DNA from: an uncultured Bacteriovoracaceae bacterium
GTDB lineage: Bacteria > Desulfobacterota > Desulfomonilia > UBA1062
Direction: 5' to 3'
Assembly (NCBI GenBank): GCA_964572405.1
Contig: CAZNGL010000003.1
Span: 1 to 62,706 of the forward strand
DNA length: 62,706 nucleotides
Within the stretch, counting starts at the first letter, position 1; each line of letters starts with the position of its first letter. The position numbers and the translations under genes are program-made. Positions 4,825 through 19,132 of this stretch are shown here, one piece after another. Under the pieces are notes generated by a model that had not been told where the DNA came from, searched no databases, and saw nothing but the letters and a program-made list of their open reading frames with translations.

Positions 4825-5508
4825 CTAGCGGTACATGTTCCCTGCCACCATGGCGTTCCAGATCAGGTTGGCCAGTTTCTGCGACCCGCTGGATGTGGGG
4901 TGGATATCGTCCGACTTGATGTCCGTGGGCAGGATGACTGCCCTCGGGTCCACGAGGGTCGCCTTGAAGCCGGAGTAGACGGTACCGAAGATGCCAGGGT
5001 AGAGCCAGTCATAGGTGTAGTCGATGGCCTCGTTCTTCTCGATCTCGCTGCCCTTCACGTGGTAGTAGCCGAGCCACACGCAGTCGTTGGGCGATTTGGT
5101 GTACATGGTGTAGAGCATGGCCTCCATCTTGTCGCCGACGTAGTTGAGCACATCCAGGCACCCTGAGGTCAGCGGGTCGGAATCGCAGTCCATGCTGCCC
5201 TGGAGGATGTCATTGGCCCCGCCGTCGGCGATGAGGGTCTTGAGCGTCGTCCTGCCGAGGGCCGTGTTCATCTGGCTCTGGATCGCCGCGATCTTGGCGC
5301 CGCTCACGGACCGGTCCTTGTACATCTTGCCGGACAGGGTCTTCAGGTATGTCTGGATCTCGCCCGAGAGGTCGAAGACCGAATCACCGATGATCTGGAC
5401 ATCCCATTCCGTTGCCGTTGGATTGTGAAAATCGAACGAGCATCCGATCGTCCCCAGGGCCAACCCCCCCGCCATCCCGATAACCAATAGCATCCTGAAC
5501 AGTCTCAT
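4825..5508 (-). CDS. SGNH/GDSL hydrolase family lipoprotein
   Basis: Lipobox-like GTIG-C; catalytic blocks IGDSV, GGANDI and DDIHP; GGAGG RBS before ATG 5508. Confidence 0.8.
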   Translation of the reverse strand: MRLFRMLLVIGMAGGLALGTIGCSFDFHNPTATEWDVQIIGDSVFDLSGEIQTYLKTLSGKMYKDRSVSGAKIAAIQSQMNTALGRTTLKTLIADGGANDILQGSMDCDSDPLTSGCLDVLNYVGDKMEAMLYTMYTKSPNDCVWLGYYHVKGSEIEKNEAIDYTYDWLYPGIFGTVYSGFKATLVDPRAVILPTDIKSDDIHPTSSGSQKLANLIWNAMVAGNMYR

Positions 5509-5741
5509 CACGCCTCCTCCTTGATAGATGGTTGCGGCACGATCACCTGACAGACAGTGCCGCCTCTTGCCGCGATCCACAAGGATTGCTCTGGACCTGG
5601 GACTCATAAAATATTAAAATATGTCAATAAGATTAATATAGATTGATATATGCAGATGACAACAGGGAAAATATATGGGGGGAATTGGGGGAGATACCCC
5701 CCATGGAAAACCTTTGCGGCCCCCCCCTTGAAGGAGCGCTC

Positions 5742-7046
5742 ATGACCGGGCCCATCCAGACAACGAGAAAGAGCACCGGAAGCCACGCCAAGAAGCTGCT
5801 GCTGGAGAACGACAGGAGGTACCGGTTCCTGGCGAACCGGATCACGGACATCATCTGGGTGCTCGACCTCAAGACCTTCCGCCTCGAATACGTGAGCCCG
5901 TCCTCGGAACTCGTCACGGGATACACGCCGGAGGAGGCTGTTGGCACCAGGCTGGACCGCTTCGTGACGCAGGAGGGGATGGCCGAGATCCAGCAGGTCT
6001 TCCTGCAGGAATACGAGAAGGAGAAGCGGAAGGTTTCCGACTCCAGGACCATCGATTTCCAGATGTACCACAAGGACGGGCACACGATCTGGCTGGAGGC
6101 CTCGGCCCGATTCTACCGCAACGAGAGGGAGAAGGCCATCGGCATCGTGGGCGTGGCGAGGGACTGTACCCTGCGCAAGGAGGCGGAGATACGGCTCCGT
6201 AAGAGCGAGGAGAAGTATCGGCATATCATCGAAACGATCAGGGAGGCCTACGGCGAGTTTGATCTCGCGGGCAACCTCCTCTCCTGCAACGATGCCACTG
6301 CAGACATCACCGGGTACTCCCGGCCCGAGCTCATCGGGATGAACTACCGGCAGTTTCTTGATGAATCCGATGCCAGGGCCGTGTTCGATGTCTTCCATCG
6401 GGTGTACCTGACCCGCCAGTCCGCGAAGGGGATCGAGTGCGCCATCAGGGACAGGCGGGGGGCTCTCAGGCAGCTCGAGCTCTCCGTCCTCCTGTTGACC
6501 GATGCGGCCGGCAGGCCCACGGGGTTCTGCGGATTCGGCAGGGACATCACCGAGGCAAAGGAGATGCACGAGCGGCTCGATGCCCTCCTGAAGGAACGGA
6601 CCGCGGAGCTGATGCAGACCAACGCGACCCTTGAGAGAACGAACATCGCCCTGCAGGTGCTCCTCGAGAAGAAGGACGAGACGAGGTTCAAGCTGGAGGA
6701 CGCCGTGCGCAGGAACGTGGGCGAGCTGGTGATGCCCGCCCTGAGCAAGCTGCAGAACAGCGGGCTCTCCCCGAAGCAGATGGCCTACGTGGAGGTGATC
6801 ACCAAGAACCTGAACGATATCGTCCAGCCCCTGCTGAAGAGCGTCTCCCGCGACCTGGTGGAAATGACCCCCAGCGAGATACAGGTGGTCAATCTCATCA
6901 AGCAGGGGAAGAAGACCAAGGAGATCGCAGAGTTCATGAATATCGCCCCCAGCACCGTGGACTTCCACCGGGACAACATCCGCTCCAAGCTGAAGATCAA
7001 GAACCGGCGGGTCAACCTGCAGACCTACCTGCGGTCGCTGGAATAG
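5742..7046 (+). CDS. PAS-PAS-LuxR(HTH) one-component transcriptional regulator
   Basis: Two PAS S-box repeats ([12 protein letters not shown]...WLE; [12 protein letters not shown]...RDIT) and a C-terminal LuxR HTH ([22 protein letters not shown]...[13 protein letters not shown]). AAGGAG precedes ATG 5742; alternative starts 5643/5703. Confidence 0.85.
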
Positions 7047-7065
7047 GTGATACCGCGAGGCGTGT

Positions 7066-7872
7066 TCAACCGCCTATCCCGTTCGAGCGCTGCCGTGCGT
7101 ACACCGCAGCCCCCAGGGCCCCTATGATCTGCGGGTCCACCGGGAGCTCGGCCACCTCCATGGCGAGCATCTTCGAGAGTGCTTTGATGAGGCCCCTGTT
7201 CTTGGCGCACCCGCCCGTGACCGTCACCCTGGGGCGCATGCCGATGCGCTTGAGCAGGGTGAAGCACCGCTTGGACACGGCGGCCTGGATGCCGGCCGCG
7301 ATCTCCTCGGGCGGGTTCCTTTTCGCCAGGAGGCTTATGACCTCGCTCTCGGCGAACACGCTGCACTGGGAGGTTACGGGGATCACCCTGCCCGCCTTCA
7401 GGGAGAGCGCGGAGAACGCCTCGATGTCCATGCGGAAAACCCTGCTCATGGCCTCGTAGAACCGTCCCGTGCCTGCGGCGCACTTGTCGTTCATGGCGAA
7501 CTCTAAAACCGCTCCCCTGTCGTCGATGGCGATGGCCTTCACGTCCTGTCCACCGATGTCCACGATGGTCTTTATGTCAGGACTGCAGGAGAACGTCCCC
7601 ATGGCATGGCAGCTGATCTCGGAGATGTTCTCGCTGGCAAAGGGCACCTCGTTCCTGCCGTACCCGGTACCGATGAGATAGGCCAGGTTCTTGTGGCCGC
7701 CGAGCCCCGGGACCTTCGCGCAGGCCTGCTCGAGGGCGAGCCTGGATGTCAGCTCCGGGTCGATCTCGCTCGGGATGATCACGGACGCCTGCATGGCGCC
7801 CCCCTCGTCGATGATGACCGCCTTGCCCGTGGTGGACCCTACGTCGCACCCGCCGAAGTATCTTTGTGCCAT
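7066..7872 (-). CDS. ATP-dependent acyl-CoA dehydratase/reductase activase (HgdC/BcrAD family)
   Basis: ASKHA motifs GCDVGSTTGK, GTGYGR, DIGGQD and the Fe-S cysteines NDKCAAGTG and SQCSVFAESE. Confidence 0.92.
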   Translation of the reverse strand: MAQRYFGGCDVGSTTGKAVIIDEGGAMQASVIIPSEIDPELTSRLALEQACAKVPGLGGHKNLAYLIGTGYGRNEVPFASENISEISCHAMGTFSCSPDIKTIVDIGGQDVKAIAIDDRGAVLEFAMNDKCAAGTGRFYEAMSRVFRMDIEAFSALSLKAGRVIPVTSQCSVFAESEVISLLAKRNPPEEIAAGIQAAVSKRCFTLLKRIGMRPRVTVTGGCAKNRGLIKALSKMLAMEVAELPVDPQIIGALGAAVYARQRSNGIGG

Positions 7873-9443
7873 ATCCTCGCCTCCCCGTCTTCTCTGTGGG
7901 TTCCCCGCGCCTGGTGATCGAGTCGTTCCGCCTTCATGACATTCTCCATGAAGTGTTCCACCTGCCGCATCATGTTGTCACGGGAGACGATGCGCGGATC
8001 GCTCAGGTCGTAATCCAGGATCAGGAGCGGTATGCCTTTCTCGCGGCACTTCTCGCGCAGGATGCCGTTCATGGCCTGGCCGCTCTTGCATCCCACGTGA
8101 TTGGCCACCCAGACCATGTCCAGGTCGAACTGCTTCACCATGCGGAAGATGTCGTCGAGGTAGTTCTCCGCCGGCCCCCGGGTGTGGCGGACCATGGGGC
8201 CCTGCATGACGACCCTGCTCCAGCCGCGCAGCATGGATTCGGGCGTGGAGGTGTCGATGGGGCCGAGGTGGTTGTAGCTCATGCTGTCGTTCAGGAGGGT
8301 CAGGCCGTAGGTGCGCTCCGCCCAGTTGAAGATGTCCGGGAAGTGGAGAAAGGGCGGATTCCAGCACACCGCCCGATACCGCTCGTTGAGTGTGGCCGGT
8401 AAGTGTTCCTCGAGGTTCTGCCGGGCCAGCTGCACCAGGCGCTCGAAATGTCTCGCCGAATCCTCGCACTCCGGGGTCACGTTGAAGTGCCAGAGATGGC
8501 TCATCCAGACCGCCTCCGAGGCAAGGGGCGCAGGCCTCACCCGGAGCATGTCCCACAGCTCCCGCTCCAGTTCCAGCATGCGATTGCGGTTCTCGCACAT
8601 CCGCCTGAAGAGGTCCCAGTCCATGCGGCCGGTCGTGTGCTTCTCGAGGAACGCGATCATTCCCTTCACGTCTTCGACGAAGAGGTCCACCGCGCGATCG
8701 TTGTAGAAGCGGTACGGCACGTCGAGGCGGTAGACGGGCACGCCGTAGGCGCGCTGGAAGAAGGTGTACGACGCCGCGCCGGCGTCGCAGGGGAGGTTTG
8801 AGCTCACCATGGCGATGCCCTTCGGCAGGTGCCCCTTGAGGACCATGCCCATGGTCGTCTTTGGCAGGCTGCAGGAGTCGGGATTGATCCCCTCGTTCTC
8901 CGCTTCGTCGATGTACTTCAGGCATACCTCCGGGTCCAGCAGGGGCAGCATGATGCCCATGGCCTCGAGCTGGTAGCACCTCAGGCCCATGGCGTGGGCG
9001 ATGTCCGGAGGCACCAGGTCCTCGTTGATGACCAGTCGGTCGGGGTGGAACAGCATCTCCCTGAGCAGTTCCACGACCCCGGCGGTGATGGTGTGCATGG
9101 TCATGCACACCGCCTCGTGATAGCGGCCGGTCCTCCCGGGGAGGATACGCCTCGTGAGGGCGTTCACCTTCTGCAGGGTCAGGATCCACGGGTGCCTGAG
9201 CAAGGTCCGGACGGACCCCACCGGGCCGAAGGCGAGGACGAACTCCATGAGGAACTTCACGATGACCGCATAGTTGAGGGCCCAGTACCTCATGTAGACG
9301 GCCAGGTCTTTCGGATTCCGCGTGCGGACGAGGTATTCCGCAAGGGAATTGTACCAGAGTTTCCTGCCTGTCTCCTTCAGACCGGCGGAAAGGTGTTTCA
9401 TGTCTGCCGTGATGTTCTTCACGCCTCGGGGTCCTCTCTCCAT
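7839..9443 (-). CDS. 2-hydroxyacyl-CoA dehydratase / benzoyl-CoA reductase subunit (HgdA/BcrB type) with N-terminal extension
   Basis: Cys motifs PDSCSLPK, PCDAG and HVGCKS; C-terminal LILDYDLSDPR. Start uncertain (9443 or 9401). Confidence 0.85.
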   Translation of the reverse strand: MERGPRGVKNITADMKHLSAGLKETGRKLWYNSLAEYLVRTRNPKDLAVYMRYWALNYAVIVKFLMEFVLAFGPVGSVRTLLRHPWILTLQKVNALTRRILPGRTGRYHEAVCMTMHTITAGVVELLREMLFHPDRLVINEDLVPPDIAHAMGLRCYQLEAMGIMLPLLDPEVCLKYIDEAENEGINPDSCSLPKTTMGMVLKGHLPKGIAMVSSNLPCDAGAASYTFFQRAYGVPVYRLDVPYRFYNDRAVDLFVEDVKGMIAFLEKHTTGRMDWDLFRRMCENRNRMLELERELWDMLRVRPAPLASEAVWMSHLWHFNVTPECEDSARHFERLVQLARQNLEEHLPATLNERYRAVCWNPPFLHFPDIFNWAERTYGLTLLNDSMSYNHLGPIDTSTPESMLRGWSRVVMQGPMVRHTRGPAENYLDDIFRMVKQFDLDMVWVANHVGCKSGQAMNGILREKCREKGIPLLILDYDLSDPRIVSRDNMMRQVEHFMENVMKAERLDHQARGTHREDGEARIWHKDTSAGAT

Positions 9444-9447
9444 GGTG

Positions 9448-10581
9448 TTATCTGCCCAGACTCTCGATGAACGCCTGCACCCGCGTGCGCAGCTGGCCTT
9501 CTCCGCCCGCGGCATATTCCCGCTCCATCTTCAAAACCGGGATACCCTCCTTCCTGAGTGCGCCGACCAGCGGCATGGTATCCACTCCCCAGAGGTCGCA
9601 GAACTTGATGACCTCGATGACCACCCCGTCCACGCGGAAATCCCTGACCGTGTCGATGATGGTTTGCAGCCGCCGGTCGAAATCCTCCATCATGCGGGGG
9701 CACAGGGTCTTCCTGAAGGTATGTTCCGCAAGGCACCTGATGGGATCGCCCTCGGTCTCCACCGGCGTGAGTCCGGGGATGGACCCGGTGCAGAACCGGT
9801 CGGCCACCACGAGCCCGCCCTGCGATTCGATGATGCCGATGAGTGCGGGGTCGTGGAGGTGCGCCCCCACCAGCATCAGGCGCGCGCGGCAGGGGAAGGT
9901 CCCCTCCCGGTTTTGAATCTCTGCGTAGAGCGACTCGATGGCCGGGAGGACAAGATCCTTGGGCGATACGAGGCCCGCCATGACGATCCGGTGGAAGTCG
10001 GCGCCGGTGATGGGGGGGTGCTCATTCTTTCTCAGGTCGCCGATGAGGAGCACGGCACGGCAGAACCTGTTCCACTCCTCGATGGCCCGTGCCACCGAGG
10101 CGGCGCCCGTGTCGATCCCGAAATGGTCCGAGAGCCTTGTTGCGAGCATGCCGAGTTCAGCGGCCAGCCACTGCGTGGTGAAAGGGGTCTCCTTGCGGGG
10201 TACGTCGATGACATGGCTGAATACGGGCTTCCTGAGGTATTCCAGGTTGTCGATGAAGCGCTGCATGTGCGCGCACGACGGGACGTGGACCCACCCCTGG
10301 ATCAGGTCGTACCGGTTGTCAAAGGCGAATTCGAGGAGACTGCGCGTGTAGGAGCAGGTCAGCGTGGACATGTAGATGTCTGCGATCTCGGTGCCCGCCA
10401 CGCCCGGCGCCCTCATGCGCACCGGGAAGAGCCTGTCCGCCATGAGCAGGGGCTCGGGCACGAAGGAGCAGGAATACCCGATGGCCATGCGGCCTTCCTG
10501 CGATGCCTGTTCCACGAGGCGGTTCAGGGGGTATTCCAGGAGCTCCTCGAAGAAGCGCACGGTCTCGGCCGGCATGGTCAT
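9448..10581 (-). CDS. 2-hydroxyacyl-CoA dehydratase / benzoyl-CoA reductase subunit (HgdB/BcrC type)
   Basis: GYSCSFVPE, TCSYTRS, SCAHMQR, DRFCTG, KFCDLWG and QLRTRVQAFIE motifs. Confidence 0.88.
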   Translation of the reverse strand: MTMPAETVRFFEELLEYPLNRLVEQASQEGRMAIGYSCSFVPEPLLMADRLFPVRMRAPGVAGTEIADIYMSTLTCSYTRSLLEFAFDNRYDLIQGWVHVPSCAHMQRFIDNLEYLRKPVFSHVIDVPRKETPFTTQWLAAELGMLATRLSDHFGIDTGAASVARAIEEWNRFCRAVLLIGDLRKNEHPPITGADFHRIVMAGLVSPKDLVLPAIESLYAEIQNREGTFPCRARLMLVGAHLHDPALIGIIESQGGLVVADRFCTGSIPGLTPVETEGDPIRCLAEHTFRKTLCPRMMEDFDRRLQTIIDTVRDFRVDGVVIEVIKFCDLWGVDTMPLVGALRKEGIPVLKMEREYAAGGEGQLRTRVQAFIESLGR

Positions 10582-10638
10582 TCCGTGATCCCTCCGGTGC
10601 ATGCCCATCGAGTGGAGCAGGACAGCAGCGCATTCATC

Positions 10639-11421
10639 TCACGCGTCCCCCCGGGGCGACAGCCCCATGGTCTCGAGGATGCCCGCAACGACGCTCAGGC
10701 TGGGCGAGGTGTCCGGTATGCCCGCCAGGGACTCCCCCCTGAAATCGAAGTCCCGGATGAGGTCGTCCTCCAGGACCCAGCCGTAGATGGGCAGGCCGGT
10801 CCGTGTCCTGATTTCGTCCACCTCCGAAGGCTTTCTCACCCGGTTGAGCACCAGGCCCATGCTCCTGAAGTCAACCGCCCCGTTGTCCCTCGCCACGTGG
10901 GCTATGGCGTCTGCCACGCCGATGCCCTTGACCGAGGTGTCCGAGATGATCACCAGGTGGTCCACGGTCTTCATGACCCTCCGGTTTATCTGCTCCACAC
11001 CCGCCTCTCCGTCGATGACCACCACGTCGAACGATCCGGCCAGGTCCGCGAGGATGTCCTTGAGCAGCGCGTTCACCCTGCAGAAGCAGCCCTCGTCCTC
11101 GGGCCTCCCGATGGCGAGCATGGCAAACCCGTCCTGCTCGTGCAGGGCGTCGAACATCTCGTAGTCGAGCTGCCTGACGGTCTGTTGTGCGGCCTGCTGC
11201 TCGCCCTTCCTGACCCGGGATATGAGATCCCTTCTGATGTCGTCCACCGTCTTGTGGACCGTCACCCCCAGGGCCACGGCCAGGCCGCAGGCCGGGTCCG
11301 CGTCGATGGCCAGGACCTTCCTGTGTTTCCCCCTGCCCAGGATCTTCACCATCATGGCGGCCACGGAGGTCTTTCCCACGCCCCCCTTGCCGCACAGCGC
11401 TATCCTTTTCGTATCATGCAT
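10639..11421 (-). CDS. cooC: CooC/AcsF-like nickel-insertion P-loop ATPase
   Basis: Deviant Walker A GKGGVGKT, DADP, metal-binding GCFC motif and IDGEAGVEQINR, all characteristic of the CooC family. Confidence 0.8.
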   Translation of the reverse strand: MHDTKRIALCGKGGVGKTSVAAMMVKILGRGKHRKVLAIDADPACGLAVALGVTVHKTVDDIRRDLISRVRKGEQQAAQQTVRQLDYEMFDALHEQDGFAMLAIGRPEDEGCFCRVNALLKDILADLAGSFDVVVIDGEAGVEQINRRVMKTVDHLVIISDTSVKGIGVADAIAHVARDNGAVDFRSMGLVLNRVRKPSEVDEIRTRTGLPIYGWVLEDDLIRDFDFRGESLAGIPDTSPSLSVVAGILETMGLSPRGDA

Positions 11422-12151
11422 GCATGGCCTCCCTGTTCTTGTGCTGCATCGATCGTCTCATCGCCTTGAGCTGGTCCGCGTCCGAACATACATCCTGGTA
11501 TTCGCAGGACTCACAGTCGGCATCGATCTCCACTGCCATCTTGTCCATGGCAGCGACGATCCTGGCGGCAGGCCCGACGATGTCCCGCAGGGCCCTCACG
11601 TCCGCGGGGGAGGAGGTGACCACGACCACCTCGATGGACCGGACGTAATCCCTGTCGCCAAACAGGTGCATGACCGACGAGGCAAGATCGCGCGCCGAGA
11701 ACCCGGACCGTATGGCCTCGGCGCTGACCCTGCACCACTCCTTCTGGTACTGGGGCACCGCCCTGATCATGAACCCCTTCAGGTCGAGGTCGTAGCGGAG
11801 CAGGTCCATGTCCCGGTGCCGCTCGTAGGTGTTCTCCTCCGTGAAGCCTTCCACCCCGGCGAGGACCACCTTGCCGAAGGGCAGGGCCCGCTTGCGGGTC
11901 TCGGTGAAATCGGGACCTATAAGGGTGATGCGTCCGTCCGCGACCTGGCGCGGGTCGCCCGTCCACAGGAGACTGCTCACGGATTCCACGTCCGGGCTCC
12001 CCAGCTCAATGCCCAGGTCCTCCTTCATGACGATGCCCCTTCGGCCCCCGGCCGGCCAGGAGGGAAGGGGGGGCCCGGACCAGCAGCGTTTTTCCGGCAT
12101 CGCTTCGACGAAGTCCCGTACCCGGCGGATGATGTCGGTGAAGAGCTCCAT
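11414..12151 (-). CDS. Stand-alone acetyl-CoA synthase (AcsB/CdhC) middle-domain-like protein with C-terminal CxxC-x5-C
   Basis: ELGSP...DGRITLIGPD...LPFGKVV...ER...W-x-RVS-x-EA-x3-GF...VVVT pattern matches my recollection of the ACS beta-subunit central domain. Only 245 aa; ends CESCEYQDVC. Confidence 0.6.
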   Translation of the reverse strand: MELFTDIIRRVRDFVEAMPEKRCWSGPPLPSWPAGGRRGIVMKEDLGIELGSPDVESVSSLLWTGDPRQVADGRITLIGPDFTETRKRALPFGKVVLAGVEGFTEENTYERHRDMDLLRYDLDLKGFMIRAVPQYQKEWCRVSAEAIRSGFSARDLASSVMHLFGDRDYVRSIEVVVVTSSPADVRALRDIVGPAARIVAAMDKMAVEIDADCESCEYQDVCSDADQLKAMRRSMQHKNREAMHA

Positions 12152-12154
12152 GGC

Positions 12155-12940
12155 CTATGCCCTGCCCCCCGCCATTTCGCGCGCCATGACCGCGGCCCCC
12201 AGGGCCCCGATGATCTGCGGGTCCACGCCCACCTTCAGCAGCTTCACCCCCAGGGCCTCCTCGAGGGCCGTGAACATGCCCGGGTTCTTCGCCACCCCGC
12301 CGGTCATGGTGATCTCGCCCTCGAGCTCGATGCCCCGGGCCAGCGAGGCGACCCGGTGGGCCATGGCCCGGTGGAGCCCTGCAACGATGTCCGCGAGGTC
12401 TTTCCCGTCGTTGATGAGCGAGATGATCTCGGTCTCGGCAAAGACCACGCACTGGTTGGAGATGGTGACCGGCGAGCGCGCGGCCGCCGAGAGGTTTCCC
12501 ATGTCGTCCAGGGGGATACCCATGGCGCCCGCCATGATCTCCAGAAACCTCCCGGTCCCTGATGCGCACTTGTCGTTGTAGGCGTAGCGGACGACGCCGC
12601 CCTGATCGTCGAGCCTGATGGCCTTGGCATCCTGGCCGCCTATGTCGATGACCATGCGCACCTTCGGAAGGAGCCACCGCGCCCCCCTGCCATGGCAGGC
12701 GATCTCCGACTCCACGGCCGTGGCAAAGGGTATGGAGTTCCGCCCATACCCCGTGCCCATGCAGCATGCGATGTCGTCCATGGCGAGGCCGGCCAAGGAG
12801 AGCGCGCCCTCCATGACTTCCCGGGCCGAGTCTTCCGGCTCGGGCCGGGCACGGATGACATGCGAGGCGATGATGTTGCCGTTGTCCATGATGACCGCCT
12901 TGGCGCTGAGCGAGCCTATATCGCATCCCGCTGCTATCAT
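12155..12940 (-). CDS. ATP-dependent activase (HgdC/BcrAD family), second of a tandem pair
   Basis: ATG 12940 (MIAAGCDIGSLSAK) overlaps the upstream stop (ATGA); NDKCASGTG and SNQCVVFAETE motifs. Confidence 0.9.
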   Translation of the reverse strand: MIAAGCDIGSLSAKAVIMDNGNIIASHVIRARPEPEDSAREVMEGALSLAGLAMDDIACCMGTGYGRNSIPFATAVESEIACHGRGARWLLPKVRMVIDIGGQDAKAIRLDDQGGVVRYAYNDKCASGTGRFLEIMAGAMGIPLDDMGNLSAAARSPVTISNQCVVFAETEIISLINDGKDLADIVAGLHRAMAHRVASLARGIELEGEITMTGGVAKNPGMFTALEEALGVKLLKVGVDPQIIGALGAAVMAREMAGGRA

Positions 12941-13725
12941 TTCGACGCTCCTTCCATCTTCTCCCTGGCACAGACGGCGGCCCCCAGGGCCCCGATGATC
13001 TGCGGGTCCACGCGGAGCCTGCGGATGCCGGTGCCCAGGAGCTTTTCCAGTGCGGCCACCACGCCCGTGTTCTTTGCCACGCCGCCGGTCATGCACACGT
13101 CCCGCTCGATGCCCACGCTCCGGGCGAGGATCGCCACCCTTCCCGCCATGGCGCGGTTGACTGCCGAGGCGATGTCCGCCCTGGACCTCTTCGCGTTCAG
13201 GTGGTGGATCACCTCGGCCTGGGCCCACACCGTGCAGGTGGAGGCCAGCTGGAGGGGTTCCCCTGCCTGGGATGAGAGCTTCCCGAGCTCGTCGAGGCTC
13301 ACGCCAAGGATCTTGGCCATGACCTCCAGGAACCTTCCCGTTCCGGCCGCGCACTTGTCGTTGGTGAAGAACTTCACCACGTTCCCCCCGGCGTCCAGTT
13401 TGATGGCCTTGCAGTCCTGGCCGCCGATGTCGATGACGGTCCTCACCGAGGGCATGAGCCAGTGCGCACCCTTGGCGTGGCATGCGATCTCGGAGACGGC
13501 CTTGCCCACGAAGGGTATGCGCTCCCTCCCGTAGCCGGTGCCCACGCAGAACGCGACGTCCTTCATGGCCAGCCCCGACGTGGCCAGAGCCCTGTCCATG
13601 ACCTCCCGGGCGGAGTCCTCGGGTCTGAAGGTGGAGCTGATGACCGCGTGGCCGAGGATACTCTTCTGGTTGAGTATCACCGCCTTGGTGGTGAGCGAGC
13701 CGACGTCGCATCCGGCAACGATCAT
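12937..13725 (-). CDS. ATP-dependent activase (HgdC/BcrAD family), first of a tandem pair
   Basis: GCDVGSLTTK, GTGYGR, NDKCAAGTG and STCTVWAQAE motifs; AAAGGAGGA RBS. Confidence 0.92.
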   Translation of the reverse strand: MIVAGCDVGSLTTKAVILNQKSILGHAVISSTFRPEDSAREVMDRALATSGLAMKDVAFCVGTGYGRERIPFVGKAVSEIACHAKGAHWLMPSVRTVIDIGGQDCKAIKLDAGGNVVKFFTNDKCAAGTGRFLEVMAKILGVSLDELGKLSSQAGEPLQLASTCTVWAQAEVIHHLNAKRSRADIASAVNRAMAGRVAILARSVGIERDVCMTGGVAKNTGVVAALEKLLGTGIRRLRVDPQIIGALGAAVCAREKMEGASK

Positions 13726-13779
13726 GGGTTGGTCCTCCTTTTCATCGTATATTCACGCACAGCCGCTCCATGAGATCCT

Positions 13780-14016
13780 CTACAGGGTCATGCTGATGGT
13801 CGCCCCGGCCCTGATCCGCTGGGCATAGAGCCTGCAGCGTTCCTTGAGCACGTTCATGTCGGTCGTGCGCTCGATGTGAGCCAGGGCCGGGAGGGCGGCC
13901 TCCCTGAAGAGGGTGAGGGCGTCGATGGCTCGCTGGCGTTCCACCAGCATCCGCCGGGCGTCCAGCGCGATGTCGCGGATGACCTCGATGGCGATGGCAT
14001 CATTCCTCGCGTCCAT
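13780..14016 (-). CDS. Small hypothetical protein (78 aa)
   Basis: GGAGGTG RBS before ATG; fills the gap between the dehydratase subunit and activase genes on the same strand. Confidence 0.7.
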   Translation of the reverse strand: MDARNDAIAIEVIRDIALDARRMLVERQRAIDALTLFREAALPALAHIERTTDMNVLKERCRLYAQRIRAGATISMTL

Positions 14017-14055
14017 GGATCACCTCCGGGTGAACGGTTATCGGTACGGATGCAT

Positions 14056-15459
14056 TCATGACAGGATCCCCCTCAGGTGAAGGAACTCGCTCATCTTGTC
14101 CATGGCCGCGTCCCAGGACTGCACCCGGTCGTCGAAGGAATCCGAGTACATGATGAGGGCCGGGATGCCGCGGCGCTCCAGGTCCCGGGCATAGGACTTC
14201 ACCATGCCCCAGGTGTTCCTGCACCCGATGGTGCCGAAGTATGCAACGAAATCCGCGCTCAGGAGTTTTGACATGACGAGCGTGTCGTCCAGCCACATGT
14301 TCGGGGCGTCGTACGGCCCGCGGATGGACTTCACCATGGGCATGCGCGAGTTCTGTATGGCCAGGGTGTCGATGAGGTCGTCCATGCTGCCCGTGCGTAT
14401 GCGGAACACGGCATCCTGGTGCTCTCCCGCGTACGCGGCGCCCTCCTCCCAGAAGGAGCTGAGGATGCACCCGAGATGCGAGATCTCCTGCCTGTCGAGG
14501 AAGGACCAGAAACGCATGTCCGTGGTATAGTGGTCGATGTACGAGAAGAAGCCGCGGGCCCTCTCCCTGCCGGAGCCGGTTCCGGCCCTTCCTTCAGCCG
14601 CATTGGCCCTGACCTGCTTCAGCATGGCCCTGAGCAGCTCGGTGTAGTCCCTTGTCCCGCCCATGAGGAAGTTGCCCGAGTAGAGGAACATGGTGAAGAT
14701 CCCCGGCACGGGGGAGGGCACGATCCTCTGGAGCTCGGTGAACTCGTTGATGAGCTCGGCCTGCATCGCGAGCTCTGCCACCACCTCCCTGAGGCGGTCC
14801 TCGTCGAGCTTCCTGCCCGTCTGCTCCTCCAGGAATCCGACCAGGCTCCAGAAATCCCTGCGGTGGAACTCCCGGGCCCGTTCGTCGGTGAGGGTGGGGG
14901 GGAAACAGAGCTGGTGGAAGGGGATGTCCAGGTATGCGGAGGCGAATGCGTACGAGTTTGCATTGGTGTCGCAGATGCCCGGCGAGTCGCACACGATCAT
15001 GTCGGGCCTGACCCCGAGACCCGCCAGATAGGCGCCCAGGGCGCCGCGCTGGGATGAGCATGAGGTCTCGGTGAACCCGACCTCGCAGCAGTAGTCCAGG
15101 AACTCCCCGGTTCCCCGCTGGAGGATGAAGGTGCCCAGTACGGTCATGGGTTCCAGCAGGAGAGGCACCACGTCGAACGCGTACAGGATGGGCGGCGCGA
15201 AGCAGAACGTGGTCATGGCCACCTTCTTGCCCTCGTCGTGGGCGCGGATGACCCTGTTCAGGTACCTGCCGAGAGCCTTCATGAGCAGGACGCCCGCCTC
15301 CCCCTGGCTGATGATCGCATCCAGGGAGTCCCGGAAATGCGGGATGAGCGAAAGCAGCGACTCGTACTCCTTCTTCGTCCCGTCGTAGGTGAACGATGCA
15401 TTCTGGATGATGGTCCAGATGGACCAGTCGTAATGATATTCCCTCGTCTCCCTTCTCAT
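14056..15459 (-). CDS. 2-hydroxyacyl-CoA dehydratase / benzoyl-CoA reductase subunit (HgdA/BcrB type)
   Basis: ETSCSSQR, GICDTN and IGCRNTW motifs; C-terminal YSDSFDDR. Confidence 0.85.
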   Translation of the reverse strand: MRRETREYHYDWSIWTIIQNASFTYDGTKKEYESLLSLIPHFRDSLDAIISQGEAGVLLMKALGRYLNRVIRAHDEGKKVAMTTFCFAPPILYAFDVVPLLLEPMTVLGTFILQRGTGEFLDYCCEVGFTETSCSSQRGALGAYLAGLGVRPDMIVCDSPGICDTNANSYAFASAYLDIPFHQLCFPPTLTDERAREFHRRDFWSLVGFLEEQTGRKLDEDRLREVVAELAMQAELINEFTELQRIVPSPVPGIFTMFLYSGNFLMGGTRDYTELLRAMLKQVRANAAEGRAGTGSGRERARGFFSYIDHYTTDMRFWSFLDRQEISHLGCILSSFWEEGAAYAGEHQDAVFRIRTGSMDDLIDTLAIQNSRMPMVKSIRGPYDAPNMWLDDTLVMSKLLSADFVAYFGTIGCRNTWGMVKSYARDLERRGIPALIMYSDSFDDRVQSWDAAMDKMSEFLHLRGILS

Positions 15460-16589
15460 GCGATCCTCTCCATGAACGCATCGATGCGCATCTTGATCCT
15501 TCCCGTCTCCACCAGGGGTCCGTATTCGCGTTCCATGCGCATGCAGGGGACGCCCGAGGCCTCCAGGTCCCGCTCGAAGATGCCGTTCTCGGAGCCGTGC
15601 AGGTCACAGAACCGGATGTTCTGGAGGATGACGCCGTCCACGCGGGCCTCACGCGCCAGCTCCCGGATGTAGGCGAGTCTTTCCCGGTAGCAGCCGAACA
15701 TGCGGGGACAGAACTTGTGGCTCAGGTAACGCTTCGCCAGGGCCTCGAAGGGATCCGCCTCTTCGTCCACCAGGTCGCGGTAGGACCTGGAACCGAAGCA
15801 CATGGTATCGCTCACCACCACGCCTCCGGAGGACTCGATGAGCCTGATGAAATCCAGGTCGTCGCTGGTGCTGCCCACCACCATGAGGCGTTTTCTGCCG
15901 CCAGTCACGGCAGGAGCCTTCTTCAGACCCTTCAGGATCTCCTTCAGCTCCCTGGTATAGTCTTCCCGGGGCATGGCAAACCCGGCCAGCACGATCGCCG
16001 CCGCATCCTCCCCGGTCAGGGGTGAGCCAGGGGAAGCCCTCAGTGCATCGAGCTCCATGAGGAGCCTACGGCCCTGGTTGTAGAGCCTGATGGATTTTTT
16101 CAGCGACGCGGTGGACACGCTTACCCCGAAGTGTTCTTGGAGGCGGTTCGAGAAGATCCGCAGCTCGTCCGTATACCACGTGATGCTGTAGTCCTCCACC
16201 TTGTGGGGGACGCCCAGGTAGTGGAAGAACCCCGGCACCCTGCCCGGGATGTCCTGGCCTGCCTTTCTCCAGCACTCGTCGAGCCTCCGCATGGAATCGC
16301 ATCCGTTCACGATGACGGCACCGTCGAGGAAGGCGTAGTCGCCCTGGCCGGCCAGCTGGAGTATGCACTTGGGGAAGCTGCAGATCACCGGACCGAAGTA
16401 GGTGTCGCCGATGGACAACGTGGTGGTGTTGATGCCCCTGAGCCGGAAGGGCAGCATGCCCGCGGCATGGATGATCTCGTCGGGCACGAAGGTGCATGGG
16501 TAACCGATGACCTTTCCCCCCGCATCCTTCCACTGCCGCAGGTAGGTGTTGCCGATGGATCGCGCGATGTCCCTCATGGCATCCATCAT
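15456..16589 (-). CDS. 2-hydroxyacyl-CoA dehydratase / benzoyl-CoA reductase subunit (HgdB/BcrC type)
   Basis: GYPCTFVPDEI, ICSFPK, NGCDSMRR, DTMCFG, RFCDLHG and MRIDAFME motifs. Confidence 0.88.
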   Translation of the reverse strand: MMDAMRDIARSIGNTYLRQWKDAGGKVIGYPCTFVPDEIIHAAGMLPFRLRGINTTTLSIGDTYFGPVICSFPKCILQLAGQGDYAFLDGAVIVNGCDSMRRLDECWRKAGQDIPGRVPGFFHYLGVPHKVEDYSITWYTDELRIFSNRLQEHFGVSVSTASLKKSIRLYNQGRRLLMELDALRASPGSPLTGEDAAAIVLAGFAMPREDYTRELKEILKGLKKAPAVTGGRKRLMVVGSTSDDLDFIRLIESSGGVVVSDTMCFGSRSYRDLVDEEADPFEALAKRYLSHKFCPRMFGCYRERLAYIRELAREARVDGVILQNIRFCDLHGSENGIFERDLEASGVPCMRMEREYGPLVETGRIKMRIDAFMERIA

Positions 16590-17794
16590 GATTCACCCCC
16601 TGCACACAGCGGTGCGCCGTTCCGTGACGGCACGGCCGCGTCCAGGATCGGCCGCAGCGCCTCGATGACCTCGGGCACGATCCAGGCGGCCGCCGCCCTG
16701 ATCTCCTCGGTGTCCAGGGAATCGGCCACGCTGGTGATGAAGGAGGAAAAGACCTCGGGCCTGACCTCGTGGATGCCGTTGAGCACCCGCGCAAGGGTGT
16801 TGAGGGAATTCGCCATCTCGTAGGTGTCGAGGTCGGAGAGGCCCTGCGCAACCGACCCGGCCAGGGTCTCCCGGTCGAATTCCTCGAACATGCGGGTCCT
16901 CCGCGAGAAGGCCCTGATGGCAGGCGACTTCAGGGAACCGAGGGCACGCACCATTTCGAGCACGAGGTCTGGATGTTCCCTCAGCGCATCCGCCAGGGCA
17001 CAGGCAGCGGCCTCCCTGTCTTCCGCCAGTGCGACGCGGGCCTTCTTCAGGAGGACGGGGTCGACGAGCGGCAGGCCCTCCTCGAGCAGCGCGGTGAGGT
17101 AGACCTGGAAAAGGGGCCTGCCTGCCCTGGCAAGGAGGAGGTTGCCCGTATGGACGCGCCGGATGAGCTCGCTCACCGAGTTCGCCAGACGGGCGATCTC
17201 CCCGGCATCGAGCCTCCGCACCAGCGAGAGCAGGAGGTCCGCCAGGAGGTCGGGCCCCACCTTCTTCTCGATGGGCTGCAGGAGGGTTCTCACTGAGCTG
17301 ATCCCGGTGTTGACCAGGGCGAGCAGGGTGCCCAGGATACTCCCTGCCTTGGCGGGGTAGCTCCAGAGGTGCTCGTTGAAGGCCTCCAGCGCCTCGATGA
17401 CGCGAGCCCTCGATTTCTCCGCCATCTCCCGGATCTCACCGAAGTCGGTGCTCCTGAGGAAGCCGTGTATGGCCTCCCCGTGCATGGCCGCTCCGCCGGC
17501 AGGGGCCGCTGCCTGTTCGGCATTCACCGTGCGGGCCCACGCGGTGACCAGCGTCCCCACATCGGCCGCCATGCCCCCGTCGTGCCTGGCCGGAGGGGTA
17601 TTGCCCAGTCTGGACGCGACCCACAGGGCGGGGGCTGCGAGCCTTTTCCTGAAGCCCTTCCCATCCGCCCAGCCGCAGATGAGGTCTTTTGCCACCTCCG
17701 AGACCAGGGCCCTGGCTCCCGCAGACCGCATGGTCCTGCCGATGATGCGGGCCAGGGCCCGGGTGCCGGCCGTCTGGTGATCCGTGCTATTCAT
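16586..17794 (-). CDS. Hypothetical all-alpha protein (402 aa), paralogous to 18482..19132 and 19129..19560
   Basis: Translationally coupled on both sides; repeated P-x2-L/F...[VL]D-x2-E[LI] helical motif. Confidence 0.75.
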   Translation of the reverse strand: MNSTDHQTAGTRALARIIGRTMRSAGARALVSEVAKDLICGWADGKGFRKRLAAPALWVASRLGNTPPARHDGGMAADVGTLVTAWARTVNAEQAAAPAGGAAMHGEAIHGFLRSTDFGEIREMAEKSRARVIEALEAFNEHLWSYPAKAGSILGTLLALVNTGISSVRTLLQPIEKKVGPDLLADLLLSLVRRLDAGEIARLANSVSELIRRVHTGNLLLARAGRPLFQVYLTALLEEGLPLVDPVLLKKARVALAEDREAAACALADALREHPDLVLEMVRALGSLKSPAIRAFSRRTRMFEEFDRETLAGSVAQGLSDLDTYEMANSLNTLARVLNGIHEVRPEVFSSFITSVADSLDTEEIRAAAAWIVPEVIEALRPILDAAVPSRNGAPLCAGGES

Positions 17795-18485
17795 TGTGCC
17801 CCCCTGTCTTGTCTTTGAGCATCTCTTCCAGGGCCCTTCTCCCGGCCTCTGTCATGTGGGTCTCGAACATGAGGTGGCTCATGGTGGTGAGCGTCGCAAT
17901 GGCCTCCTCGCGGGTGAATTTCTCCTCCATGAGGAAGCTGTGACCGAGGTGCATGGTCATGCCCACCACGGCATAGGCCATGGTGATGGGGTTCACGCCC
18001 TCGATGACCCCCATGTCCAGCCAGCTCTGGATGTCCTCGGCAAGGTCCTGGGCGATGTCGCTGTAGTGCTTCCAGATGGTGACATCCATCTCCTCGTCCA
18101 CGCCGAAGCTGCCGCGGAGCACCATGAGGAACTGCTGGCGGTGGGAGGTGATGTAGTCGAAGTAGGCGCCGTAGCTCTGATTGAGCTTGTCCACCCTGTC
18201 TCCGTGGTCCCAGATGTTCACCGGCTCCCTGAGTTTCCTGATGCGCAACCGCAGCTCCTCCAGGTTCCGGTTGGTGATCTGCCCGAAGAGATCCCGCTTG
18301 TCCTTGAAGTAATTGTAGAAGGTTCCCGCCGACATGCCCACGGCCTTGACGATGTCCATGACCTGGGTGTTGTGGTAGCCGTGCCTGCTGAAGAGCTCTT
18401 CGGCGGCCTCCATGATCATGTCCCGGATGAGCTGCTTCTTCTTTTCCAGGAGTTTGTTCACGGGTGTTGCCCTCATGCCCTTCAT
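17787..18485 (-). CDS. TetR/AcrR family transcriptional regulator
   Basis: HTH AAEELFSRHGYHNTQVMDIVKAVGMSAGTFYNYFKDKRDL; ATG 18485 overlaps the upstream TGA. Confidence 0.92.
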   Translation of the reverse strand: MKGMRATPVNKLLEKKKQLIRDMIMEAAEELFSRHGYHNTQVMDIVKAVGMSAGTFYNYFKDKRDLFGQITNRNLEELRLRIRKLREPVNIWDHGDRVDKLNQSYGAYFDYITSHRQQFLMVLRGSFGVDEEMDVTIWKHYSDIAQDLAEDIQSWLDMGVIEGVNPITMAYAVVGMTMHLGHSFLMEEKFTREEAIATLTTMSHLMFETHMTEAGRRALEEMLKDKTGGHNE

Positions 18486-19132
18486 ATGCCGAGCCTCTTT
18501 CTCACCCTGCCCCGCACCAGGTTCCAGGTCCAGGACGCCAGGCGCCACTTCTGGTCGAGGAGGGCATTGGCCATGGTGGTGGCGGCCTTTGCCAGTTCTT
18601 CCCCGTCGACGTTTTCCATGACTGTGGCGATGAACCTGCTGAAGGCCTGCGGGTCGTCCCGGGTGATGCTGTTCACGAACCGCGAGAATGCATTGATGGC
18701 GCCCGCTTTGATCTTGGGTCCTTCGGAGAGAAAGGCCCGGATAAGGGTTGTTCCCAATTCAGGCGAGGCCTTGATCATCGCGGACGCGAGACCTGCCCAT
18801 TCCTTGCCGCACTCCCTCAAGGCCTCCCTGTCGATGTCCTCCGCGAGGCTGACCATGAACGACTTCAGGAGCTCGGGTGGGTACTTGTCCTTCAGTTGGG
18901 TCGCCAGCTCGGTGAGCGCGCCTGTCACGCTGTTGATGAACACGGGAAGGCCCCCGGAAACCCCGAAGAAGACCTCCGGGTCGTCCCCGAGGAGTGTCTT
19001 TACCGCCTCCCTGCCCGAGCCGGGATGCAGGGAGTTCATCTTCACCCGGATGAGGTCCTTTGCAAGGGTGGAGCGCATGAGGGCCTTCAGGATACCCCCC
19101 TGGTTCTGTGTGGATGGCCCGGCCTGTCTCAT
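18482..19132 (-). CDS. Hypothetical all-alpha protein (216 aa)
   Basis: ATGA overlaps on both sides; clear similarity to 19129..19560 (DPEV...YPP-x-LL...EDID/EDVD). Confidence 0.75.
   Translation of the reverse strand: MRQAGPSTQNQGGILKALMRSTLAKDLIRVKMNSLHPGSGREAVKTLLGDDPEVFFGVSGGLPVFINSVTGALTELATQLKDKYPPELLKSFMVSLAEDIDREALRECGKEWAGLASAMIKASPELGTTLIRAFLSEGPKIKAGAINAFSRFVNSITRDDPQAFSRFIATVMENVDGEELAKAATTMANALLDQKWRLASWTWNLVRGRVRKRLGI

Follow-up and report, generated by a model that had tools for sequence, protein, structure and literature searches.

A conserved Bzd-like gene module with two different activases, a candidate ATP-driven reductase of uncultured anaerobes

Results

A four-gene module of the benzoyl-CoA reductase superfamily

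The window analyzed here is a 62,706-nucleotide (nt) stretch of DNA from an uncultured Bacteriovoracaceae bacterium (contig CAZNGL010000003.1), and all coordinates refer to that whole stretch. The interval under study, 12155-16589 on the minus strand, encodes a module of four genes: a small, BzdN-like beta subunit (B377), a larger alpha subunit (A467), and two ATPases of the activase or archerase type, act1 and act2 (Table 1). Both subunits are HGD-D proteins with cluster cysteines, the ATPases are of the ASKHA type, and all matched Pfam models above the gathering cutoffs. Thus, the module belongs to the radical-enzyme superfamily of benzoyl-coenzyme A (CoA) reductases and 2-hydroxyacyl-CoA dehydratases (BCR/HAD). 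A preliminary description of the sequence had reported an HgdB/HgdA-type pair followed by two nonidentical activases, each with both Fe-S cysteines, in the motifs NDKCAAG/STCTVW (act1) and NDKCASG/NQCVVF (act2). The four genes and all of the motifs were indeed found at the positions it gave.

The genes are tightly packed. Overlaps of 4 nt join act1 to act2, the alpha gene to the beta gene, and the beta gene to the gene upstream of it, u402. We place the start of act2 at the ATG at 12940, 4 bases inside the act1 stop; a 518-amino-acid (aa) open reading frame (ORF) at 12155-13711 in a mechanical ORF list was rejected as a high-GC artifact. Two HGD-D genes followed by two BcrAD_BadFG genes is the composition of BzdNOPQ of Aromatoleum sp. 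CIB (PDB 8S02; PMC11971306), and the order of the genes is the same, N-O-P-Q. Subunit composition and gene order also match those of bcrCBAD.

Conservation was assessed with orthologs of B377, for which 143 matched stretches were found in a collection of one genome per species; the analysis retained 80 loci. The orthologs are 52 to 84% identical. They come from Desulfomonilia, from Smithella and other Syntrophaceae, from Desulfobacterales that include a metagenome-assembled genome (MAG) of Desulfosudis oleivorans, from Spirochaetota and Leptospirales MAGs, from Binatia, and from one Bacillota MAG, and thus span four or more phyla. The order beta-alpha-act1-act2 was kept in all loci. Moreover, 4-nt overlaps recurred between act1 and act2 (46 of 69 loci), between alpha and act1 (48 loci), and between beta and alpha (32 loci).

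The small subunit is predicted to carry a double-cubane cluster

The closest match of B377 in the PDB was BzdN (8s02_B), but at 153 bits the identity is about that between separate branches of the superfamily. BzdN binds an [8Fe-9S] double-cubane cluster through six cysteines, in an environment formed by Arg53, Arg267, Arg290, and His330 (Fuchs et al. 2025, PMC11971306). Six cysteines of B377 (C32, C70, C97, C264, C294, and C328) occupied the same alignment columns as the cluster ligands of BzdN and of DCCP from C. hydrogenoformans (PDB 6ENO, 7YYL), and each was invariant in 73 to 74 of 74 orthologs. Their spacing agreed with the published double-cubane motif (PMC7317905). Moreover, R49, R268, and H331 of B377 correspond to BzdN R53, R267, and H330 around the distal subcluster and were identical in all 11 aligned B377 sequences. 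In the same alignment, the dehydratase subunit HadC lacked two of the six cysteines, the equivalents of C32 and C264, and MbdN lacked three; HadC retains just a [4Fe-5S] remnant (PMC11971306). We predict that B377 carries an [8Fe-9S] double-cubane cluster.

B377 differs from DCCP in several respects. DCCP is a homodimeric single subunit in which the cluster is the active site, whereas the genes for a distinct catalytic subunit and for two ATPase proteins accompany that of B377. The top NCBIfam match of B377 was the double-cubane reductase model NF040772, but the score of 183 bits fell below the cutoff of 350. Finally, the DCCP motif includes a seventh, nonligand cysteine that is missing from B377 and likewise from BzdN, and its absence fits a cluster that stores and relays electrons rather than one that serves as an active site. 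In a beta-subunit tree, made with FastTree only and read without support values, B377 and the small subunit of a second module in the window, B386, formed sister clades apart from BzdN, HadC, MbdN, and DCCP.

The large subunit combines a conserved cluster site with a different pocket

In BzdO, a [4Fe-4S]-OH2 cluster is held by Cys95, Cys128, and Cys380, Glu65 and His131 are the acid/base residues, and Trp46, Tyr97, and Leu302 surround the benzoyl ring (PMC11971306). Three cysteines of A467, C134, C163, and C413, were invariant in 79 of 79 orthologs. Profile-to-PDB alignment put C134 and C163 on BzdO Cys95 and Cys128, and C413 was paired with Cys380 through spacing and alignment. The invariant E103 fell on the catalytic Glu65, a residue common to BzdO and HadB. 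Thus, a three-cysteine [4Fe-4S] site with an open coordination position is predicted for A467. A similar site, with the conserved glutamate, is found in the alpha subunit of the HGD-D heterodimer HadBC (PDB 3O3M).

The surroundings of the site are not those of BzdO. The position of His131 is taken by an invariant Asn166, that of Trp46 by Phe85, which is conserved at 90% or more, and that of Tyr97 by Ser136 in the A467 of the window. Cys86, present in 74 of the 79 orthologs, occupies the position at which the lost distal cubane would have its first cysteine, and A467 is longer than BzdO at the N terminus by some 50 residues. An AlphaFold2 model of A467 (pLDDT 82.7, pTM 0.87) was compared with solved structures by Foldseek and fit BzdO at a TMq of 0.75 and HadB at a TMq of 0.70, the latter with the best E value. 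A profile of A467 also matched HadB (6.7e-15) better than BzdO (2.1e-09). Because the model superposes about equally on BzdO and HadB and less well on beta-type subunits, we conclude that A467 is, as modeled, the catalytic alpha subunit and that its pocket differs from those of both solved relatives. In the corresponding tree, A467 and its paralog in the second module, A534, grouped as sister clades apart from the known systems.

The two activases are sister paralogs with different cluster surroundings

Act1 and act2 are 56% identical, and both exceeded the TIGR00241 cutoff of 125.4 bits. Both keep the N-terminal GxDxGS motif, DIGGQD, and GGVAKN, and both have C125 and C164, the residues that bind the bridging [4Fe-4S] cluster in solved activators; the two cysteines were invariant in 62 act1 and 57 act2 orthologs. 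The closest PDB match of act1 was the activator HadI (PDB 4EHT; 217 bits, 43% identity), but HadI is a homodimer made from one gene. Two different ATPase subunits in a heterotetramer are instead the arrangement of MbdONQP (PDB 9G87, 9GAI) and BcrCBAD, and MbdP shares the NDKCASG variant of act2.

The origin of the pair was examined with a quick IQ-TREE search on act1, act2, and act3 (the activase of the second module) from 22 loci together with HadI, HgdC, DCCP-R, MbdQ, and MbdP. Act1 was monophyletic (support, 99), act2 was monophyletic (96), and the two were sisters (91), while act3 formed its own clade (100) outside them. MbdP and MbdQ, the only BCR ATPases in this comparison, also fell outside the act1/act2 clade and were 32 to 45% identical to each. 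Moreover, both act1 (207 bits) and act2 (205 bits) scored highest to bzdQ among the BCR models, with no split into A-like and D-like members. Because act1 and act2 are sisters, MbdP and MbdQ lie outside, and both proteins score best to the same model, we conclude from these comparisons that the ATPase duplication belongs to the act1/act2 family and did not come from the MbdP/MbdQ split.

The two activases appear to be kept as a pair, and one of them has changed near its cluster. All 61 related loci with enough downstream sequence had both act1 and act2, and act3 comes with the second module where that module is present, which ties act1 and act2 to the first. Act1 has its own set of invariants: C105, W167, and Q169 (71 of 71 orthologs) and N190 (69 of 71). 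Positions 167 and 169 come right after the second cluster-ligating cysteine, and they are F and E in act2, act3, HadI, HgdC, DCCP-R, MbdQ, and MbdP; W and Q occur in act1 alone. Act2 keeps the canonical F167, E169, and H190. Tryptophan and glutamine beside a cluster cysteine in one paralog only would make the cluster site of a mixed dimer asymmetric, as expected of an obligate heterodimer, and we regard this as the strongest sequence argument that act1 and act2 form one.

The genome contains further activases. Besides the three proteins of the window and one match on contig C208, the only activase domains of the genome were a pair on contig C36, where a 1,428-aa ORF (about 5158-9444; L085 1159-5445, minus strand) spans two tandem activase-type tblastn matches and probably encodes a fusion of two such domains. 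HGD-D genes number 12.

The module is part of a larger conserved unit

The genes around the module are also conserved (Table 1), and none of u402, the CdhC-like protein, and the CooC-like ATPase accompanies BzdNOPQ. The preliminary description had recorded neither this wider unit nor a 78-aa ORF inside the interval. Across loci the order is u402, beta, alpha (sometimes two), act1, act2, the CdhC-like protein, and CooC, often followed by the second module (module 2) and act3. In 77 of 80 loci, u402 directly preceded the beta gene. Its product had no Pfam or NCBIfam match; it was modeled as all helical by AlphaFold2 (pLDDT 79.8), and a fold search against the PDB gave no match (all E values were >1) and hence no functional clue. 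U402 may be an accessory subunit or scaffold.

The 330-nt gap between the alpha gene and act1 contains no remnant of a second alpha gene. It contains instead a conserved 78-aa ORF, homologs of which were detected by tblastn at 58 to 76% identity in 21 related loci, always within the module. The position of the ORF varies, as it may lie between beta and alpha, between two alpha paralogs, or between alpha and act1, and in locus L089 it is a called 77-aa gene. The product is possibly a small accessory subunit.

Downstream of act2 lies the gene for the CdhC-like protein, which consists of an acetyl-CoA synthase (ACS) middle domain plus C213, C216, and C222, the three being invariant in 55 of 55 orthologs; we refer to it as mini-ACS. 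It followed act2 in 56 of 60 testable loci. A CooC-like ATPase was encoded next to the mini-ACS gene in 51 of 60 testable loci, and it carries a CFC (CxC) motif that resembles the metal-binding motif of CooC. Module 2 was found in 23 of 36 testable loci. Its beta subunit, B386, also has six cysteines (C47, C85, C112, C273, C303, and C337), which were invariant in 28 of 28 orthologs. The sister relationships of B377 with B386 and of A467 with A534 suggest that modules 1 and 2 arose by duplication inside this system.

Upstream genes are more variable. Loci of Desulfomonilia and Smithella have an ACAD-like pair, base-less in the window and its relatives, and 35 other loci, those of Spirochaetota and Desulfobacterales, instead have a short GMC-type flavoprotein of about 449 aa upstream of u402 (e.g., L055 7072-8421). 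The neighbors in the window also include a TetR regulator at 17787-18548 and, just upstream, an AbfD-type radical dehydratase.

Table 1. Genes of the four-gene module and its conserved neighbors in the window
Feature	Coordinates	Strand	Length (aa)	Matches and remarks
u402, helical protein	16586-17794	-	402	Overlaps beta gene by 4 nt
Beta, BzdN-like subunit (B377)	15456-16589	-	377	Pfam HGD-D 1.7e-89
Alpha, predicted catalytic subunit (A467)	14056-15459	-	467	Pfam HGD-D 5.9e-41
Helical ORF, unannotated	13780-14016	-	78	Good Shine-Dalgarno sequence; between alpha and act1
act1, activase/archerase subunit 1	12937-13725	-	262	BcrAD_BadFG 7.4e-61; TIGR00241 243 bits
act2, activase/archerase subunit 2	12155-12940	-	261	BcrAD_BadFG 6.4e-55; TIGR00241 236 bits
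CdhC-like mini-ACS protein	11414-12151	-	245	PF03598 CdhC 5.9e-11
CooC/MinD-type P-loop ATPase	10639-11421	-	260	CbiA, AAA_31, and ArsA matches
Module 2 beta subunit (B386)	9448-10608	-	386	HGD-D 6.9e-78
Module 2 alpha subunit (A534)	7839-9443	-	~534	HGD-D 9.5e-52
act3, third activase	7066-7872	-	268	BcrAD_BadFG 3.4e-51; accompanies module 2

Two variants of the unit were noted among the related loci. First, two tandem alpha paralogs stand behind one beta gene in L003, L006, L009-L017, L020, L022, and L088 (e.g., L088 11139-13981), where the window has a single alpha. This arrangement suggests that two catalytic subunits may alternate on a common electron-storage subunit and a common ATPase pair. 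Second, in some loci of Smithella/Syntrophaceae (L089 15979-21131 and also L032 14159-18300), module 2 is replaced by genes for two further activases, a 139-aa protein, two HGD-D proteins, and a flavoprotein of the GMC type. Thus, two-activase modules recur in this system.

Discussion

How the module might work is suggested by its relatives. A single [4Fe-4S] cluster would bridge the act1/act2 heterodimer, each protein contributing two cysteines. Binding and hydrolysis of ATP would then drive an electron from reduced ferredoxin onto the [8Fe-9S] double cubane of B377, much as DCCP-R is the partner in ATP-dependent electron transfer to the cluster in DCCP. The double cubane would store electrons and relay them to the three-cysteine [4Fe-4S] cluster of A467, where an open and probably water-bound site, together with the invariant Glu103, would convert the substrate, most likely an acyl-CoA thioester. 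Net reduction with stoichiometric use of ATP is favored over a redox-neutral dehydration, and both u402 and the 78-aa ORF product probably work with the four-gene enzyme. We think it somewhat probable, judging from sequence, that the module encodes a Bzd-like ATP-driven reductase that acts on a nonaromatic or otherwise unknown CoA ester and not on benzoyl-CoA.

Whether the enzyme is a reductase, as the preliminary description had proposed, or a dehydratase is the central issue. In architecture, the module is closer to the Bzd type of class I reductase than to a dehydratase. Among solved proteins, the double-cubane signature has so far been found in BzdN and DCCP only, and by analogy it would point to a reductase, as would the two-gene ATPase, which is that of the class I BCRs. 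The module shares with BzdNOPQ not only the six cysteines and the Arg/Arg/His environment of the small subunit but also the three-cysteine cluster and glutamate of the large one and two nonidentical ATPases of about 260 aa. The proposal of a reductase is supported in part. The rule on which it leaned, that heterodimeric activases serve reductases and homodimeric ones serve dehydratases, does not hold strictly: the two ATPases are indeed kept as a pair, but DCCP-R drives a reductase as a homodimer (PMC7317905).

Several further observations weigh against a heterodimer-driven reductase of a CoA ester. A heterodimeric ATPase is no proof of stoichiometric ATP use, and the heterodimer is itself deduced from co-occurrence and asymmetry only. 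Module 2 combines a six-cysteine beta subunit with a single activase. Elsewhere in the genome (contig C90 9019-11382; L083 4020-6383), a beta subunit that has all six cysteines and the Arg/Arg/His environment has as its partner a HadB-like alpha subunit (300 bits) and may belong to a dehydratase-like enzyme that has a double cubane. Both the profile and the model of A467 had their best E values with HadB. Finally, the CoA ester is assumed as a substrate from family precedent only.

The module might instead encode a radical dehydratase of an atypical kind, or some other redox-neutral enzyme, in which one ATP-activated electron is recycled through many turnovers, as 2-hydroxyacyl-CoA dehydratases do, and the two activase genes are a lineage-specific elaboration that does not bear on stoichiometry. 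The ranking of HadB over BzdO for A467, the ranking of HadI first for act1, the glutamate common to HadB and BzdO, the six-cysteine beta subunit beside a Had-like alpha subunit in the same genome, and the AbfD-type dehydratase encoded just upstream are all consistent with such an enzyme. The usual dehydratase partners are missing, however, as the conserved unit has neither a 2-hydroxyacid dehydrogenase gene nor a CoA-transferase gene, and scores to the HadB (36.6 against 750) and HadC (149.4 against 700) models were far under the equivalog cutoffs. Moreover, dehydratases use a homodimeric activator from a single gene and a [4Fe-5S] cluster on three cysteines of the beta subunit, whereas here two activase paralogs occur in every testable locus and the small subunit has six invariant cysteines, which solved HadC does not. 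A storage cluster that takes two or more electrons also has no obvious role where one electron is recycled. We consider a dehydratase possible but rather unlikely, and we favor the Bzd-like reductase.

It is improbable, in our view, that act1 and act2 are separate homodimers with different clients, for example, the beta/alpha pair for one and either mini-ACS or a second alpha subunit for the other. Each protein has complete cluster and nucleotide motifs, and many relatives have two alpha paralogs, as separate homodimers would allow. Moreover, we looked among the related loci for a fusion of act1 to act2 that would support a heterodimer and found none, and this counts against the heterodimer as well. 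Long ORFs that resembled such fusions were start-codon artifacts, and a 1,399-aa protein in L072, like the 1,428-aa protein on contig C36, is a separate protein with two activase domains. Both activases are nevertheless kept in loci with one alpha subunit and in loci with two, regardless of whether the mini-ACS gene lies next to them, and in most loci their genes share 4 nt. Furthermore, act1 alone changed two otherwise universal residues by the bridging cluster, which is easier to understand if act1 is one half of an asymmetric dimer.

The preliminary description had also considered an aromatic substrate, and this part of it did not hold. Composition and gene order are identical to those of a class I aryl-CoA reductase, BzdN tops the PDB matches of the small subunit, and the orthologs are annotated at their source as "benzoyl-CoA reductase subunit C". 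None of the four subunits, however, reached an equivalog cutoff, whether bcr type, bzd type, Had, or DCCP. The NCBIfam equivalogs TIGR03190, TIGR03191, and TIGR03192 were all missed: the bzdN model scored 146.5 against 453.8 and the bzdQ model 207 and 205 against 380.2, the bzdO model gave no match to A467, and the BcrC model scored 135 against 421. The cluster cysteines and glutamate of BzdO are present, but its ring-pocket and proton-relay residues, Trp46, Tyr97, and His131, are replaced. The genome (3.15 Mb, 98% complete) was searched for three enzymes of the lower benzoyl-CoA pathway, and not for Had (TIGR03201), and the best matches fell below the cutoffs for Oah/BamA (TIGR03200; 94.5 against 464), Dch (TIGR03189; 79 against 292), and BadI (TIGR03210; 158 against 468). 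Moreover, the constant partners u402, mini-ACS, and CooC have no known role in a benzoyl-CoA pathway. The trees and the model of A467, which follow checks that the preliminary description had suggested, resolved a distinct clade, act1 and act2 as separate sisters, and a Bzd/Had-like fold for A467; the activase tree did not nest act1 and act2 with MbdP and MbdQ. Thus, benzoyl-CoA reductase orthology was rejected on equivalog scores, active-site residues, and the missing lower pathway, and we think it very improbable that the module is a genuine class I reductase of benzoyl-CoA or substituted benzoyl-CoA. The other HGD-D pairs of the genome were considered as true BCRs and were also rejected, being Had-like and under all cutoffs. 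Because the module does not appear to be a benzoyl-CoA reductase, we regard the annotations of its orthologs as over-calls.

Reduction of a small molecule or other non-CoA substrate, as in DCCP, is equally remote: NF040772 is the top NCBIfam match of B377, and DCCP and TudS are family members that act on substrates other than CoA esters, as are PlsA/PlsR, but B377 lacks the seventh, active-site cysteine of DCCP, is paired with a distinct HadB/BzdO-type alpha subunit, and has neighbors of the CoA-ester type (the ACAD-like pair, the TetR regulator, AbfD, and the ACS middle domain).

In its fold, its cofactors, and its general mechanism, a Bzd-like reductase of this kind belongs to a known family. 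In the literature that we searched, we found no account of an independent asymmetric ATPase pair, of a distinct conserved active site, or of a fixed association with u402, mini-ACS, and CooC, and no paper that tied CooC or the mini-ACS protein to BCR/HAD enzymes. A ketone-induced BCR/HGD pair of Desulfosarcina (PMC7888143) could not be tied to this family. We speculate, and hold it to be a tentative idea, that the module is a separately evolved ATP-driven low-potential reductase, in which an asymmetric heterodimeric archerase, double-cubane storage, and a new active site work with a CooC-matured mini-ACS and module 2. Its reaction would be new to biochemistry, for example, a reductive C-C or C-S chemistry on an acyl-CoA, and it might take place in many uncultured anaerobes, among them Desulfomonilia, Smithella and other Syntrophales, Desulfobacterales, and Spirochaetota.

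To our knowledge, the ATP-driven reductases of the BCR family reach the lowest redox potentials in biology, and their substrates are known for a handful only. As a clade, the module described here is well delimited and very highly conserved, with beta subunits at least 52% identical, and it combines Bzd-like cofactor signatures with a different active site. Once its substrate is identified, syntrophic and sulfate-reducing anaerobes could prove to carry out a new reaction at low potential. Knowledge of the substrate would also correct a widespread automatic label, "benzoyl-CoA reductase subunit C", that now inflates the estimated potential for aromatic degradation in metagenomes.

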